From NCBI GenBank assembly GCA_964016885.1, contig OZ024758.1, positions 15,190,001 through 15,254,000 of the forward strand: a DNA stretch of 64,000 nucleotides, read 5' to 3'. The notes under the pieces are model-generated. The model did no database searches. It was not told the origin of the DNA and saw nothing but the letters and a program-made list of their open reading frames with translations. The position numbers and the translations under genes are program-made. The DNA is from Eledone cirrhosa (lineage: Eukaryota). Of this stretch, positions 3,871 to 46,525 are shown piece by piece (positions within the stretch are counted from its first letter, which is position 1; the number at the start of each line of letters is the position of its first letter).

Positions 3871-3910
3871 TTTCTGCTGATGAAGGACTAGCGTCCGAAA
3901 CGTTAAGACC
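3871..3910 (+). ncRNA. Minimal hammerhead ribozyme motif (Penelope-like), weak stem I
   Basis: CTGATGA (3877-3883), A, GGAC-tagc-GTCC, GAAA (3897-3900), CGTTA with palindromic AACGTT; a hairpin lies upstream at 3715-3771 and (TA)n flanks the unit. Confidence 0.6.
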
Positions 3911-3984
3911 CTCTTTCTGCTATATCATGCGTTAACCTAATATATACCTTCCAGATACTGTACTGATTGTGTTTCTGTTTACCT

Positions 3985-5801: not shown

Positions 5802-5996
5802 TATAAATAAATAAATATATATATAATGAGGTTAACAGGACTAGAATAAGGTTTCCCTGCTAGTACCAGTTGCATCTCAGCGTACTCAATAGGTAAGGCT
5901 ATGTATAAATCCCAGAGTAGACAAAGTTATTTGCCTCGATGCACATACATAAATGGGTACCATAAATTTATACCCGTACTTGAGTTGTTTATTACA

Positions 5997-6039
<43 letters not shown>

Positions 6040-6056
6040 GCAACATAAGGCAATTA

Positions 6057-6117
6057 TTTCATTTACCAGTGGTTTCTTGAAAGCAAAAAAATGTTGCTTT
6101 CAATCATCAGAATGAAA
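6057..6117 (-). ncRNA. Type I hammerhead ribozyme (mirror copy)
   Basis: Reverse complement: TTTCATT-CTGATGA-TTGAAAGCAA-cattttt-TTGCTTTCAA-GAAA-CCACTGG-TA-AATGAAA, with a perfect 10-bp stem II. Confidence 0.85.
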
Positions 6118-6181
6118 AAATCCTGGTGTATTTATTGACATTGGTTTTTAAAATCCAATGTCAATAAATACACCAGGATTT

Positions 6182-6242
6182 TTTCATTCTGATGATTGAA
6201 AGTAAAATTTTTTTGCTTTCAAGAAACCACTGGTAAATGAAA
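6182..6242 (+). ncRNA. Type I hammerhead ribozyme
   Basis: Stem I TTTCATT/AATGAAA; CTGATGA 6189-6195; stem II TTGAAAGT/GCTTTCAA; GAAA 6223-6226; stem III ACC-act-GGT; GUA triplet, predicted cleavage after 6235. Confidence 0.85.
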
Positions 6243-6331
6243 TAATTGCCTTATGTTTGTTTATTACATAACTATTAAGCTCTGTAACCTACATAGAGCA
6301 CTATTTTTTCCTGGACCTTTCTGACGGAATT

Positions 6332-6375
<44 letters not shown>

Positions 6376-11788: not shown

Positions 11789-11794
<6 letters not shown>

Positions 11795-12311
11795 GAATAA
11801 AATAACAGGAGGCTGGACTGGTGTAAATCCTTGAAAAGTTTATTATACCATGATCATTTCAATGACCGGGTTCCATATGAATCCGGTGATATCATCAGGT
11901 ATTCGAAATATAACAAAGGAATATATAAAAATCCATGGGTCTGAAAATCAGAGACAGAGGACGACTGACAAACTAGCTGTTTTCACCTCGGTCAGTCGCC
12001 CTCTGATTTTCGGACCCATGGATTTTTATATATTCCTTTGTTATATTTCGAATACCTGATGATATCACTGGATTCATACGGAACCCGGTCATTGAAATGA
12101 TCATGGTATAATAAACTTTTCAAGGATTTACACCAGTCCAGCCTCCTGTTATTTTATTCATAATAATTAACTCCGTATTCGCACCACCAACTACACAAAC
12201 GAAGACGGCTGAACTGCACTACGTTGAGTACTTTCCATAATATTGCATCAAGATTGACCATACGGAATGACCAATTCTATCCGGTGGTGAACCAACAAAC
12301 TTAAATAAATG
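11789..12311. mobile_element. Fold-back Penelope-like element with hammerhead-like motif on both arms
   Basis: ~165-bp inverted arms (11789-11953 and 12001-12165); ATAC-CTGATGA(12056-62)-stem II-GAAA(12094-97)-TGATCAT-G-GTAT; unique tail to ~12311; (TA)n flanks. Confidence 0.75.
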
Positions 12312-15450: not shown

Positions 15451-15875
15451 TACGATATTAAACAAATGGAAACTATATTTATATTTATAAAACCATATTT
15501 ATTTTGTTATATATATTTCTGGGATATCATATTAAAAATATGTTATGCCTTCCTCAGACAAAATACAATACATAAGCTGTTTTATAAATAATTAGTGACA
15601 TACCTTGTGATAATGCAACTTCCTTTTAAAAAGTTGATTTTTTTTTTAAAAGGAAGTTGCATTATCACAAGGTATGTCACTAATTATTTATAAAACAGCT
15701 TATGTATTGTATTTTGTCTGAGGAAGGCATAACATATTTTTAATATGATATCCCAGAAATAAATATAGTTTCCATTTGTTTAATATCGTAAACCTACTCC
15801 AGAAACTGTTGAGTGCTTTTATATCAGTTATAAAATATTTACTCGTTGTAACCCAACAATCTTAAATAAAACTTT

Positions 15876-15879
<4 letters not shown>
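15451..15879. mobile_element. Fold-back Penelope-like element with hammerhead
   Basis: Inverted arms ~15451-15632 and 15642-15790, unique tail 15791-15879, (TA)n on both sides. Confidence 0.8.
15501..15564 (-). ncRNA. Type I hammerhead ribozyme
   Basis: Reverse complement: ATTTTGT-CTGAGGA-aGGcATAaCATATT-ttt-AATATGaTATcCCa-GAA-ATATATAT-A-ACAAAAT; 7-bp stem I, palindromic stem III, AUA triplet. Confidence 0.75.
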
Positions 15880-18043: not shown

Positions 18044-18059
18044 TATATATATATATATT

Positions 18060-18184
18060 TATTAAAATAACAGATTAAAGTTTAAGTAAAGAATTGCTGC
18101 TTTCACCCTTAACGAGTTTCAGAAGATCCCGTTAAGGGTGAAAGCAGCGATTCTTTGCTTAAACTTTAATCTGTTATTTTAATA
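18060..18184. mobile_element. Short fold-back element with degenerate hammerhead core
   Basis: ~55-bp inverted arms between TA tracts; CAGAAGA-TCCC-gttaa-GGGT-GAAA; a single-arm copy lies at 55352-55420. Confidence 0.6.
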
Positions 18185-18199
18185 TAGTTTTATATATTT

Positions 18200-23380: not shown

Positions 23381-26300
23381 GTTCATATCTTCATAGCAAT
23401 TATATACACTATTATTATTTTCAGTATAATATTTTCGACAATTTCCTATTGATCAAACTAATATTGCATACACGACAAACATAGTTAATTTCAGTGGAAT
23501 GTTGTCGACTGAATAATTAAACTTTTCTGTAACAATTGTATCTTAATATTTAACCCGTTCATGTTCAAACCGACCAGAACCGGCCAGAATTCTCTACCTC
23601 TTTCTGTTGAAACTGGCTGTAACTGGTCACTCAAACTGATGTTAAGGTATTGTTCTCAAAATAAATACTTGCAAAATCTCAGATTCGATATTATGTGAGA
23701 TAATTATGCGAGGTAAAGCCTTTACCATGAAAATATAATAGTATATAGAGACTAATGTGAATGGTAAAGGGGTAAGCATTTCGTAAATATAATTAAGGAG
23801 GCACATGGCTTAGTGGTTAGAGCATTGGCCTTGCAATCGAAAGGTTGTGAGTTCAATTCTCAGACTGGGTGATGTGTTGTTTCCTTGAGCAAGACACTTT
23901 ATTTCACATTGCTCCAGTTTTCTCAGCTGTAGAAATGAGATGATAGGACTGGGGTCACTATCATTCCACTGCAAAGTGGTCGTGGAGGTGCCATGGTAAA
24001 AAAGCACCCAGCACTCACTGTAAAGTGGTTGTGGAGGTGCCACGGCAAAAAAGCATCCAGCACTCACTGTAAATGAGGTTGGTGTTAGGAAGGGCATCCA
24101 GCTGTAGAAATCAAGCCAGAATCAGTTCCCGTCCCACCCTTGCAAGCAGGGAAAAGCGGACGTAAAATGATGAGTGATTTAACCCTTTCCTTTATGACCA
24201 ATTCTGTTTAACCCTTTAGCATTTAAACCGGCCATATCCAGCCAATCTCTCACCTCTTTCTGTTCAAACCAGCTGTAACTGGCCACTCATACTGATATTA
24301 AGGTATTGTTCTCAAAATAATTAAATATCAAAATCTCTTAGATTTGATATTATGTAAGATAATTGTGAGATAAAGCCATTACTGTGAAAATATAAAGGTA
24401 AATATAAAAAAATGTAAATGCTAAAGGGTTAAACTTTAAACACAGTGCTATTAATGTAAAATAATGGAGTCATACTGATTTTAAGGTATTGTTCTTAAAA
24501 TAACATGAAAATCTCAGATTCAATATTTTGAGAGATAAAGTGTTTACCGTGAAAATACAATAGTATATATAGAGTAATGTAAATGCTAAAGGGCTAGAAG
24601 ATAAATTTCTGTATTAAGAATGGTGAATGATATATGTTAATTCTTAAAGTCCTCTACCACATAAAACCACATTGACCCTTTAGAAATTAAACCGGCTGTA
24701 TCCGGCCAGAAGTCTCTCACCTCTTTCTGTTGAAACTGGCTGTAATGAGCTGCTTATACTTATGTTAAGGTATTGTTCTCAAAATTTCATAGATTCGATA
24801 TTATCTGAGATAATTATGTGAAATAGTGTTTACTGTGAAAATACAATAGTAAATATAGAGTAATGTAAATGCTAAAGGGTTAACAAGAAATTCTTGACAA
24901 GTATAAAACAGTGCTACTGCTGTATTATATTAAAAATTAACAACTTTTCCCTAATACAGCAAATGTTCACATCAATCTGTCCGCTAGTAAAGCTGCCATA
25001 AACCTTCTAAATCATTACAAGATGTTAAGTTCTTATAGTTTATTCTCAGGTAAGCTACAATGTTGATTTTTATGACCAAATTTGTTCCAACAATAACCCT
25101 TTAGCATTTACATTACTCTATATATACTATTATATTTTCACAGTATTTTCACATAGTATTGAATCTATGGGATTTTGATTTTATTTATTTTGAGAGCAGT
25201 ACCTTAACATCAGTATGTTATGGCTGGTTTGAACAGAAATAGGTGAGAGAATTCTGGCCGGATATGGCTGGGTTAAATATCTCATCTATGACTACATAAT
25301 CTAGTATTTCTGGGCAGGGTGGGGGCAGATAAGGTGTCACTTTAGAGAAATTTGACTGCTATTTATAGCAGATCAAGTGACACTTATAATAGGGCAGGGA
25401 TCTCCAAACCTTTTAAACTATTGACCTCTTCATGTAATCTTTGACCCTTTGCATGTATAAAAATAGATATATAAATCAGTAAACTTTAAATTTAAGGAGT
25501 ATTTCATGAGGTGTGATAGTAAATTTAAGGAATATTTCATGGAGTGATAGTAAATTTAAGGAAGATTTAGTGGGGTGTGATAGATTTAACCCTTTAACAT
25601 TTACATTACTCTATTTATACTATTGTAATTTTGTGGTAAAAGCTTTGTTTTACATAATTATCGCACATAATATCAAATCTGAGATATTGATTTTATTTTG
25701 AGAACAATCAATACCTTAACATCAGTATGAGTTGCCAGTTTGAACAGAAAGAGGTGAGAGTTTTGGCCGGATACAGCCGGTTTAAATGCTAAAGGGTTAA
25801 GGAGTATTCCGTGAGGTGTGATAGTAAATTTAAGGAGTATTTAGTGGGGTGTGATAGTAAATTTAAGGAACAGTTCAGTCAGTTAACAAATGTATGTACT
25901 TAACAACCGAGACATTCTATATCTAAAATATTTCTTACTAACAAATTTGCCAGCACCATAAAAGTGTTGCGTAGATTTCATTGAAAAACTATTCAAAATA
26001 ACTTTATTACTAACCATTTCTGATAAGATGTTAAACTGTGGTGTAGTAGGTAGGGTGGTGGTATCTCCAAAATCTAACAGATTCCACATCATTTGAGCTC
26101 CTCCACAAGATTGGAACATTAGCAGCCCATCTGAGGAGGAAGCCCTAGGAGGTGGGGTGGCTGTTACAGCGAGTGTCACTGACCATTGTCTGCGGGGGGT
26201 GCAGCCCCTTTTCCGCCGTGCCCTAGGCCCAGAGCCCAATCATCCTCCCCCCTTCCCGTTTTTCTGTGACACTAGAGTCCTTTGCCATTCCCTCCTTTTT

Positions 26301-41575: not shown

Positions 41576-43745
41576 TGTAATTAGAACCATATGGTGGTGT
41601 CATGCAGGTAGCCGAGCAGATAGCTAAAATGAAACTACAAAATCTTAACTATAATAAAGTAAGGAGTGCGGGACTGCGTCCAGAATATATTTTTTTATCC
41701 CGTTTGTAAAATAAGTTGGATTACTTTGAATAAATAATTGTTTCTATTTTTGGCACAAGGCCAGCAATTATCCCAGTGTATTACTGGTACTTTATTTTAT
41801 CGACCCCGTAAGAATCAAAGGCAAAGTTAACCTCGACGGGATTTGAACTCAGATCATAAAGAGACGTAACTCTATTCGTCAAAGCATGGCGCCCGACCCT
41901 CTACCGATAATGAATGAATATTACATAATTTGTGCTAAATTTCGTGGCTTTTGATAAAATATATTTTATAGCTTATTTAAAGATCTTTAAAATTCAATTC
42001 TTTAAAATTATCAAATGTCAACACTTCGGGTTAGCGGCCGTTATATTATAAGTACCAGTAATGTTATAAGTACCAGTAATGTTATAAGTACCAGTAATGT
42101 ACTGGGTAATTGCTGGCCTTGTGCCTAAAGTAGAAACAGTTATATTATAACACTTATAATCGCATATATTTCCCTCGATAATTTTCTCCTAATGCAGTTT
42201 ATATATAATTGTTTCTACTTTTGGCACAAGGCCAGCAATTACCCAGTGTATTACTGGTACTTTATTTTATCGACCCCCGTAAGGATGAAAGGCAAAGTTA
42301 TAATGTTTTTTTTTTTTTTTAATATCATGGATTACTGATTACAGAAGACAATGTAACATAGGCTTTGTTTAATTTCTGTGTATATTGTCAATTACGATGT
42401 TATTTGATGTATCATATTTGATGTATCATATATTGTATATATATTTGTGTATAATATCAATATACACACTACACATGCTAGCAAGAAACCACGCGTACGG
42501 TGGTTTTTCTGCTAGTGTATTTAATTACTTTACCTACACATGCCCACTTAATAAACTTTACACACACAAACTAATGAGGAAGGTTCTATGTGGTGCAGTT
42601 GAGTTGCTAGAAATAGCATTTAAACCGGCCATAACTGTCCAGAATTCTCTCACCTTATTGTGTTCAAACTGGCTGAAACTGGCCACTCATACTGATATTA
42701 GGGTATTGTTCTGAAAATAAATAATATCATCTCATAGATTCGATATTATTTGAGATAACTGTGAGTTGAAGTGTTTACCATGAAAATACAATAGTATATG
42801 TAGAATAATGGAAATGCTAAAGGTTTAAGTAATATTCTTGTCTTTATAGAAAACACACAACTTCATACCATATATACTCGAATATAAGCCAAGGAATCTG
42901 TACTATACATGCACCTTTGATGAGTTATAGTGCACCTGAGCACTGTCCGCAATAATTTTCATCGGTAGAGGGTCGGACGCCATGCTTTGCAGCAAAGAGT
43001 TACGGCCCTTTATGGTCTGAGTTCAAATCCTGCCGAGGTTAACTTTTCCTTTCATCCTCACGGGGGTCGATAAATTAAAGTACCAGTAATGTACTGGGAT
43101 AATTGCTGGCCTTATGCCAAAAGTATAAATAAAAATATTTTTAAATAAACAGCTTTGCGTTATAGAACTGGTGACATTTTCAGGTGGTTTGGTATTAAGA
43201 GTTAATCATGTCTGTTTCATCAGAGCTAACCTGAAGCTAAACGACAACTCTGCACACACTTTACCATAAACATAGACGAAGCACTGTTTATACATTTAAA
43301 CAACTGCTAACTTTTTAAGCTGAGAAATTCTATATAACCTATTTAATACTCCAGCTGAGAGTGGTCTTCAAATAAAAGAGTTTACATAAAGTCTAGGATT
43401 TTGAACATGAAATATATATTAACTCAACCATATGGTGAATAATCTCTTCTTTATTTATATTAGTCACAGTCTACTAAGATATGATCTTTGTGAAATATTG
43501 TAGTATTAGATTAAAAACATCAATATTTTATGTGTTGCAGTCCTAATGTTGTTTTGTACTTTATCTCAACAGTATAGAAACATTCATAGAAAGGTTCCAT
43601 GTTCCGCTGAGTTAATCCCTTAGATACAGAGTCTGATATTAGATCAGTCAATATGTCAATATGATCAACCCACCGAATGATTGTAAAATAATATGAATAG
43701 GTAAAATAACTTGACTTTGTTATTGTTTTCATTGTTAAATTGATA

Positions 43746-43790
<45 letters not shown>

Positions 43791-44405
43791 TCATTTTAAA
43801 AGGTATCTATATTTGAAGTTCTAGTCAAACTTTAATTAGTTACCTACCTTGCTATGTGTGCCTACATTCTTTACAAATTATTCCCTGTGATTGTTTCATG
43901 TATTTATTTTATATATATATATATATATGTCAATCTATTTCTAGTTGATATCTAATGCTCGGATCTAATCTTTGAGCTTATTCTACGGTGGATATGGCGC
44001 ATGTCTCTCAGACATGACAACCCTTAATTTTAATTTTGGATATATCATCATCATCATTTTACATTCGCTTTTCCCTGCTTGCAAGGGTGGGATGGGAACT
44101 GATTCTGGCTTGATTTCTACAGCTGGATGGCCTTCCTAACACCAACCTCATTTACAGTGAGTGCTGGGTGCTTTTTTGCCGTGGCACCTCCACAACCACT
44201 TTGCAGTGGAATGAATGATAGGGACCCCAGTCCTATCATCTCATTTCTACAGCTGAGTAAACTGGAGCAATGTGAAATAAAGTGTCTTGCTCAAGGAAAC
44301 AACACATCACCCGGTCTGAAAATTGAACTCACAACCTTTCGATTGCAAGGCCAATGCTCTAACCACTAAGCCATGTGCCTATATATATATATATAGATAG
44401 ATATA

Positions 44406-44632
44406 TAGAAGTGGCTACACAACAGTTAGTTCACCATAGCAAGAACAATTGTTTCACCTTAGCGGATCCTCAGCTCGTAATGGACGTATAACCATGTCCA
44501 TTACGAGCTGAGGATCTGCTAAGGTGAAACAATTGTTCTCGATATGGTGAACTAACTGTTGTGTAACCACTTCTACCTAACTCGTCCCATGGACTGAGTG
44601 CTCTACCACTACGGATATTACCTTCCAGTGTT
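44406..44632. mobile_element. Fold-back Penelope-like element with hammerheads on both strands
   Basis: Arms 44406-44486 and 44495-44575, tail to ~44632, between (TA)n and (CT)n/(TA)n. Confidence 0.8.
44504..44541 (+). ncRNA. Minimal type I hammerhead ribozyme (mirror copy at 44440-44477 on the - strand)
   Basis: CGAG-CTGAGGA(44508-14)-TCTgctaaGGT-GAA-ACAATTGT-T-CTCG: stem I CGAG/CTCG, palindromic stem III, GUU triplet. Confidence 0.8.
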
Positions 44633-44659
44633 CTCTCTCTCTTTCTGTCTTTCTCTCTT

Positions 44660-44692
<33 letters not shown>

Positions 44693-44751
44693 TTTTCTCT
44701 CTCTCTCTCTCTCTTTTTCTCTCTCTCTCTTTTTCTCTCTCTCTCTCTCTC

Positions 44752-44806
<55 letters not shown>

Positions 44807-45934: not shown

Positions 45935-46322
45935 AAAATAAAGATCCGAAGGCATGGTATAAATTTAAACAACTGTTGAAGGCATGGTATAAATTTCCAA
46001 TCATTTTAATCATGACACATGTTTCAATAAGGGATAGATCGATCGTGTGGTCATGATCTCTGATCTCTGGAATTGGAGATATACAAAAGCGTGGAGAACT
46101 GAGATAAGTGATAATCAATCATGACCACACGATCGATCTATCTCTTATTGAAACATGTCGTGATTAAAATGATTGGAAATTTATACCATGCCTTCGGATC
46201 TTTATTTTTTTATACAAATACTCCGTTTTACATCATCTAGCTGTTCTCTTAAATGGAATTGGAGAACTTAATATTGCTAACAAAAGTTTATTGGACCGTA
46301 TGACACAACCAATAATACACCT
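45935..46322. mobile_element. Fold-back element with degenerate hammerhead
   Basis: Arms ~45935-46057 and 46118-46209; CTGAGA(46099)-long stem II-GAAACATGTC (46150-59); tail shares ACTCCGT and TT(G)GACC(G/A)TA with the 12.2-kb tail. Confidence 0.6.
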
Positions 46323-46472: not shown

Positions 46473-46525
46473 GGGACCGTCCTGACGAAGGCCAGTTAAG
46501 CCTGAAATGCATAGACGGTTGTCCC
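46473..46525 (+). ncRNA. Compact type I hammerhead ribozyme (retrozyme/PLE-like)
   Basis: ACCGTC-CTGACGA(46482-88)-AGGC-cagttaa-GCCT-GAA-ATGCAT-A-GACGGT; 6-bp stem I extendable to GGGA/TCCC with a bulge; AUA triplet, predicted cleavage after 46513. Confidence 0.88.

Follow-up and report, generated by a model that had tools for sequence, protein, structure and literature searches.

A truncated head-to-head insertion with minimal hammerhead motifs in Eledone cirrhosa, a probable footprint of a Penelope-like retrotransposon with a candidate hairpin in its tail

The window analyzed here, a stretch of 64,000 nucleotides of the Eledone cirrhosa assembly (contig OZ024758.1, positions 15,190,001 to 15,254,000), is composed of AT-rich, microsatellite-laden DNA of animal type. 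Within it, an inverted repeat is formed by two arms of 80 bp (44406–44485 and 44496–44575), which are identical at 76 of 80 sites, are separated by a spacer of 10 nt, and each bear a copy of a minimal type I hammerhead motif. The two hammerhead cores are located on opposite strands and face outward in a head-to-head organization (Table 1). The truncation of the minus arm lies 9 nt further 3′ than that of the plus arm, and C3 of the motif is situated 67 nt from the short and 126 nt from the long 3′ end of the repeat family to which both arms belong. Because the flanks are themselves repeats, a target duplication is unreadable at 44406–44634. Other repeats of the window include SINE-type repeats with tRNA-like heads at 44316–44373 (minus strand) and 23804–23867 (plus strand), with Rfam tRNA scores of 22.3 and 29.9 bits, the former pointing away from the element, and a nested inverted repeat at 45978–46195 made up of two 40-nt segments (39–40 identical) devoid of a hammerhead core.

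Table 1. Features of the insertion and its flanks, in window coordinates.
Feature	Position	Strand	Description
(TA)n-rich target tract, left flank	44380..44405	.	
Whole insertion	44406..44634	.	two 5′-truncated family 3′ ends, head-to-head; (TA)n left, (TC)n/(TA)n right
Short arm, 80 nt	44406..44485	-	hammerhead and downstream body; stops at the family's short 3′ end, adjoins (TA)n
Hammerhead copy 2 (predicted)	44440..44477	-	C3 at 44473; stem II as in the family majority; apparently CpG-decayed T at 44441
Junction	44486..44495	+	one linking base, then 44487–44495 as plus-arm family sequence
Long arm	44487..44634	+	5′-truncated 3′ end of the family; includes hammerhead, body, tail
Hammerhead copy 1 (predicted)	44504..44541	+	stem I 44504–07/44538–41; core CUGAGGA 44508–14, GAAA 44526–29
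Hammerhead copy 1, stems II and III		+	U.U 44515/44525; 2-bp stem II; stem III 44529–36
One-sided tail, ~59 nt	44576..44634	+	spans from the short to the long 3′ end of the family
Tail hairpin	44580..44602	+	outer and inner stems of 4 bp each, single-U bulge between them, loop of 3 nt; RCU follows
Right flank	44635..44804	.	(TC)n, then (TA)n tract

The first copy of the motif, 38 nt in length, contains the complete hammerhead core, namely C3-U4-G5-A6-N7-G8-A9, G12-A13-A14, A15.1-U16.1, and H17. Its stem I consists of 4 bp, with 4 bp more possible beyond a 2x2 loop (44498–501/44544–47), and its stem II comprises only 2 bp and has a U.U mismatch at the closing position. Stem III is a perfect palindrome of 8 nt from A44529 to U44536, which agrees with the palindromic 15.2–16.2 plus loop 3 of the minimal hammerheads in Penelope-like elements (PLEs) and bears out the self-complementarity proposed in an initial annotation of this DNA. 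Since H17 is U44537, the predicted cut lies after this nucleotide (triplet GUU). The second copy, read from 44477 to 44440, carries both differences listed in that annotation. Of the 38-nt hammerhead pair proposed there, both motifs are present, but they are arranged as an inverted repeat, with no tandem. The motif had been described as about as short as a hammerhead can be; 38 nt is indeed small, yet rows of 34–35 nt are found by hand count in Fig. S3 of PMC4209133. The U.U mismatch of stem II, the extension of stem I, and the element end near 44634 were absent from the annotation.

A type I descriptor, loosened so as to admit the motif at 44504, had six matches in the window, four of which contain a strictly palindromic stretch of at least 6 nt, the two arms of the locus not being independent of each other. 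In 200 block-wise dinucleotide shuffles, the mean was 0.02 matches (maximum 1) and the palindrome of 6 nt or more appeared in 0 of 200; the occurrence of the motif is thus beyond chance expectation. Rfam returned no hammerhead match over the window at the gathering score, nor over 44300–44700 at E ≤ 10, and pattern scans had no match in metagenome contigs or viral contigs. When compared to the minimal PLE hammerheads described by Cervera and De la Peña in 2014 (PMC4209133), which have a palindromic helix III, cleave weakly and as dimers only, and occur as pairs on opposite strands 100–700 bp apart, the motif shares the type I form, the CUGANGA/GAAA/UH core, the 4-bp stem I, the palindromic helix III, the predicted dimer-only activity, and the opposite-strand pairing. 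The U at H17 is likewise found in 24 of the 56 rows of their Fig. S3 (hand count). In contrast, the distance from core to core is 35 nt at the locus, and stem II is reduced to 2 bp closed by U.U, while theirs is a longer helix opened by G10.1–C11.1; among the 56 rows in the PDF text of Fig. S3, no 2-bp stem II closed by U.U was seen. The published consensus (an extra nucleotide 9.1, then G10.1–C11.1, above 80%) is therefore departed from, with U.U followed by two C–G/U–G pairs, and by its letters the motif is classed as a putative variant of the minimal PLE hammerhead outside the strict consensus. Perreault and collaborators (2011, PMC3088659) described 2-bp stem II, the U10.1–U11.1 mismatch, and palindromic stem III, with the U.U form not tied to PLE ends in the parts of that work covered here. 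Opposite-strand minimal hammerhead pairs, the 2-bp stem II, and the U10.1.U11.1 mismatch are thus already in print; literature on hammerheads in octopus was searched for and none was found.

The segment 44400–44640 was compared at 80% likeness with four of nine public DNA runs (X1, X4, X6, and X7). Family matches were found in 4257 contig pieces of X1 and in 11,540 of 12.5 million reads of X7, and in 14 pieces each of X4 and X6, which bear two other organism labels. The repeat family is high-copy, summed contig depth not being equated with copy number. Other sequence precedes 44485 and 44487 in 2136 and 1099 family reads of X7, respectively; copies run on 5′ of these positions, and both arms of the locus are therefore 5′-truncated. 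The family has two 3′ ends running into (TA)n, at 44575 (mirror 44401) and at 44634, the left arm of the locus using the short end and the right arm the long one. Among the rows listed, the short end was represented by 29 contigs plus 85 mirror contigs in X1 against 91 for the long end, and by 975 reads against 2082 in X7. Of 17 other inverted joints, the 15 listed all break at other positions, and not one of these retains both motifs whole; most joints are single contigs whose short side has 22–35 letters at 80% likeness, and joints keeping both motifs or longer arms are mostly invisible to the 44400–44640 query. In summary of its organization, the locus holds two heavily 5′-truncated copies of a high-copy family, whose 3′ region bears a minimal hammerhead motif, placed head-to-head in a microsatellite.

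The exact junction of the locus was spanned by no listed contig piece, nor was the whole stretch, as would be expected of an assembly artefact created by a fold-back chimera. However, four of the 80 arm sites differ, with each arm departing in its own manner from what most of the family has, and the same kind of inversion occurs in independent contigs with other breakpoints, so that an artefact is extremely improbable. Two of the arm differences, 44439/44542 and 44415/44566, come in addition to those of the initial annotation. Both differences within the motif, one in stem II and one in stem I, are C-to-T changes at CpG, a dinucleotide depleted across the window (o/e = 0.42). At position 44517, the family C is present in 3697 of 4142 + mates of X7; for the mirror of 44441, no C-to-T row was listed on the right arm at a summed depth near 770,000, and in the left-arm depth of X1 35% still reads C at 44441. 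The earlier statement that the arm differences keep pairing through G.U stands as far as the pairing is concerned; they do not represent covariation, being minority CpG-to-TpG states in a family that mostly has C. Because CpG decay alone converts C–G to U.G, such changes are not evidence of selection, and the arms appear to be drifting by CpG decay. Variation across the family is better evidence for the motif than the arm differences. Among the 40 variant rows listed (of 60), the sole varying core position was N7 (44512), variant in 1046 of 4142 + mates of X7, and in a subfamily A44503C stands opposite the family G44542 and lengthens stem I. A related subfamily that diverges upstream of 44520 has A at N7, a longer stem I, and an apparently shorter loop II.

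Regarding activity, the motif had been predicted to work as a dimer. It appears right that this is a minimal hammerhead of PLE type with a palindromic stem III, whose active form, according to the folding models, would need two same-sense copies; the part of the prediction that did not survive concerns the locus itself, whose copies lie on opposite strands. Stem III of copy 1 is formable only between two molecules, and the hammerhead fold is the lowest-energy one neither as monomer nor as dimer. In the isolated monomer, the fold has a probability of about 2e-6 to 2e-4. For the 50-nt form, the double-hammerhead fold reaches −14.6 kcal/mol compared to 2 x −1.7 kcal/mol, a gain of ~11 kcal/mol over two monomers, which makes a same-sense dimer thermodynamically plausible in the model. 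The dimer of lowest energy, in which core purines pair with U17, is 9 kcal/mol more stable than the double-hammerhead fold, a result that is weak either way given that the dimer folding program ignores core contacts.

It is highly improbable that the locus encodes a functional dimeric ribozyme made up of its two motifs. The core and palindrome are intact in both, and transcripts diverging from the spacer could in principle each bear one sense motif and pair in trans. Nevertheless, because the motifs are on opposite strands, any transcript consists of one sense motif and its antisense, so that they are not dimer partners, and 5′ of C3 there are only 12 nt of shared arm, which leaves no room for a promoter. 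The plus strand read through the locus folds into a single long hairpin of −151.5 kcal/mol (z −20.6). Imposing hammerhead stems I and II raises the energy from −151.4 to −81.3 kcal/mol, a cost of 70 kcal/mol. Within a read-through transcript, the sense motif is locked into a duplex of 80 bp, and a cis dimer is therefore impossible. Additionally, in other fold-backs of the family the motif itself is cut, and the differences between the arms are consistent with CpG decay. At 44406–44634, the predicted hammerhead would thus be a passenger, with transcription from either side expected to give the 80-bp hairpin. No pile of 5′ ends was present at the predicted cut site among the rows listed for the public DNA runs. 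Read ends of X7 at 44447 and 44531 were considered as cleavage products and rejected; X7 is a DNA RAD-seq library, both positions coincide with the AATT of stem III, and the ends are best taken as restriction ends. On the same grounds, the large proportion of stem III variants among X7 reads was discounted.

The near-perfect 80-bp hairpin might also be that of a fold-back or MITE-type DNA transposon, or of an exapted hairpin-RNA locus (siRNA/miRNA precursor), for which Rfam miRNA models match at E values from 5e-15 to 1e-4. All of these miRNA scores fall far below the gathering thresholds (e.g., 69 versus 110 bits), and the matches were rejected because any long hairpin matches generically. 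In contrast to fixed terminal inverted repeats, the ends are asymmetric, the breakpoints vary by copy, and copies extend 5′ of the arms, leaving either origin with little probability.

The locus is very probably the dead insertion footprint of a Penelope-like retrotransposon. Features expected of PLEs include a hammerhead near the 3′ end, 5′ truncation with an adjacent head-to-head inverted copy, an optional tail on one end only (ends 44575 and 44634), and a microsatellite target, here (TA)n, all of which are found at 44406–44634. Searches of 150 frames by Pfam (149 of the 157 complex frames, and one more that crosses the element) gave no match to RT or GIY-YIG, and five sub-threshold matches on four frames were to neither RT nor endonuclease domains. 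Because no RT frame was found, membership among PLEs is deduced from architecture only; owing to its truncation, the locus copy begins downstream of any ORF, and its hammerhead is not the start of an open frame. In the published record, as far as covered, head-to-head is the most frequent inversion of PLEs, for which self-priming on an antisense template was proposed (Arkhipova 2013, PMC3846280), and Craig and collaborators (2021, PMC8557442) described an inverted 5′-truncated copy, a one-sided tail of 30–40 bp, and (TA)n targets. The insertion at 44406–44634 resembles such inverted PLE insertions (PMC3846280, PMC8557442, PMC2377424) in its head-to-head copies, 5′ truncation, and one-sided tail, and its microsatellite target is of the kind seen in the Neptune, Hydra, and Naiad clades (PMC3846280, PMC8557442; Schostak 2008, PMC2377424). 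It differs from them in bearing no ORF remnant and in the length of its tail, whose ~59 nt exceed the published 30–40 bp and count against a PLE origin, as does the departure of U10.1.U11.1 from the G10.1–C11.1 PLE consensus. From this architecture, we infer a PLE end that was truncated, inserted head-to-head, and equipped with a variant of the minimal hammerhead. The literature covered also included PMC6765202 and PMC13282606.

A further system with a similar motif is that of the non-LTR retrozymes (Cervera and De la Peña 2020, PMC7229834), short non-autonomous units that would produce circular RNA through head-to-tail hammerhead repeats. The locus shares with them a type I hammerhead in a short, non-coding animal repeat; its palindromic stem III and high copy number also speak for this reading, and retrozymes are themselves proposed PLE derivatives (bioRxiv 10.64898/2026.07.22.740005). 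Theirs, however, are head-to-tail tandems with canonical ribozymes, while the locus is an inverted, truncated end; no second same-sense copy was found in the window, leaving the head-to-tail arrangement absent, and the listed 3′ ends of the family enter a microsatellite, not a next unit. A retrozyme at this position is very unlikely.

For the PLE footprint, a plausible course of insertion begins with an element-encoded RT/GIY-YIG protein that would nick the (TA)n target. Synthesis of cDNA may then start at two RNA sites bracketing a hairpin in the tail, and both cDNAs would stop just 5′ of the hammerhead before being joined head-to-head, either by two-strand priming or by antisense self-priming. 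The hammerhead would work in the context of full-length RNA of the element: two copies of the same sense, in tandem pLTRs or in two molecules, could pair there via the palindrome and cleave slowly, perhaps with help from protein. Read-through of the present locus would give double-stranded RNA. The closest described counterpart is Poseidon of Anolis (PAc; Frangieh 2024, PMC11167929), in which, according to the portions covered, both strands are nicked and extended, two RT start sites define the tail, RT starts in an AC-rich stem-loop, the protein is predicted to be a dimer, and the hammerhead is protein-assisted and not required for insertion in vitro. Both the locus and PAc have a tail between two RT start sites (at the locus, presumptive ones), an AT-rich target, a stem-loop at the RT start (again presumptive at the locus), and a hammerhead just upstream. 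In PAc, the stem-loop is located in the start of the ORF and belongs to one family, whereas here a covarying hairpin is found in four dissimilar families. The locus seems to be ordinary retroelement debris that is not worth pursuing as a dimeric ribozyme pair; how PLEs choose two internal RT start sites and insert in inverted form is treated as open in PMC8557442 and PMC11167929.

Four of the 18 inverted repeats in the window carry outward hammerhead cores on both arms, and none carry inward ones. These fold-backs, at 6042–6257, 11789–12165, 15508–15767, and 44406–44575, are dissimilar, the three motif regions compared with one another and the locus sharing only short alignable stretches (11789 was not included). 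The element at 6042–6335 has arms of 108 nt (105 identical), no spacer, a long stem II, and a GUA site; its tail hairpin is located at 6279, with G–C replacing A–U. At ~5986–6002, a 17-nt direct copy of its post-arm sequence adjoins (TA)n. The fold-back at 11789–12311 has arms of 165 nt (162 identical), U.U at 10.1/11.1, an 8-nt palindromic stem III, and a tail of ~146 nt with a hairpin bearing a long insert at 12170; with G at position 17 in both arms, it is predicted to be inactive. In the element at 15451–15878, the hammerhead of the right arm lost its 3′ part by deletion, the tail hairpin is situated at 15796, and the end of the tail resembles, by eye, that of the 11789 element. Another fold-back, at 18047–18197 between (TA)n tracts, has a junction that cuts or corrupts the hammerhead core and a stem II of the U[CCC..GGG]U type, as at 44504; no tail was seen in it.

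At the locus, the tail opens with a stable hairpin (44580–44599; pair probabilities 0.93–1.0). All four dissimilar fold-backs bear a hairpin of the form RCUC-stem-loop-U(N)-GAGY-RCU, on the long arm only. A first pattern had two matches (44580 and 15796) against 0.04 expected, and those at 6279 and 12170 were recognized afterwards. A descriptor written from the four hairpins matched exactly those four on both strands of the window, 72–114 nt downstream of a hammerhead core, and in shuffles had a mean of 0.14 (maximum 2), with at least four in 0 of 200, a count that is post hoc because the descriptor derives from the same four hairpins. The informative points are that the descriptor has no further matches and that letters change with pairing kept: by eye, the four inner stems are all different, and in the outer stem A–U becomes G–C at 6279. 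Speaking against the generality of the hairpin, a looser descriptor had 14 matches, eight of them not tied to such elements, this count having no shuffle control behind it. The tails of the four fold-backs measure 56–146 nt and thus exceed the published length, which also speaks against generality. The gap from the end of the short arm to the hairpin is 4, 4, and 5 nt in three of them and 21 nt in the 6042 fold-back, the left flank of the latter holding the direct copy that ends 3–4 nt before the hairpin and adjoins (TA)n. We regard the tail hairpin as probably a real conserved signal and as a candidate reverse-transcription start signal. Its proposed role would be that of a cis signal common to dissimilar PLE families of this genome, placing the RT so that one cDNA starts just 5′ of the hairpin (short end) and one 3′ of it (long end).

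The stem III palindrome might serve as an RNA dimerization site more than as part of a nuclease, handing two templates to a dimeric RT, one per nicked strand. This role is improbable; if true, it would account for the head-to-head form of the duplicated insertions, in which a short arm is joined to a tailed one. In the literature covered, no description of a cross-family tail hairpin was found, Repbase and figures S1–S2 of PMC11167929 lying outside this coverage and the latter possibly showing a comparable stem-loop; the hairpin is the element of the present analysis that is new here. Lying beside the short end, this covarying RNA element could be mutated directly in the in vitro system already available, and the hairpin could tag PLE ends that lack an ORF.

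Single consensus-like minimal hammerheads are also located on the plus strand at 46475–46520 and 3872–3912, the one at 46482 intact with a palindromic stem III and the one at 3877 with a broken stem I; within 200 nt of either, no tail hairpin was found, a further point against its generality. Conversely, hairpins of the tail type without a nearby hammerhead are situated at 43957–43977 (plus strand) and 5918–5884 (minus strand). Upstream of the former, a direct copy at 43740–43751 stops 0–2 nt before the hairpin and adjoins (TA)n.
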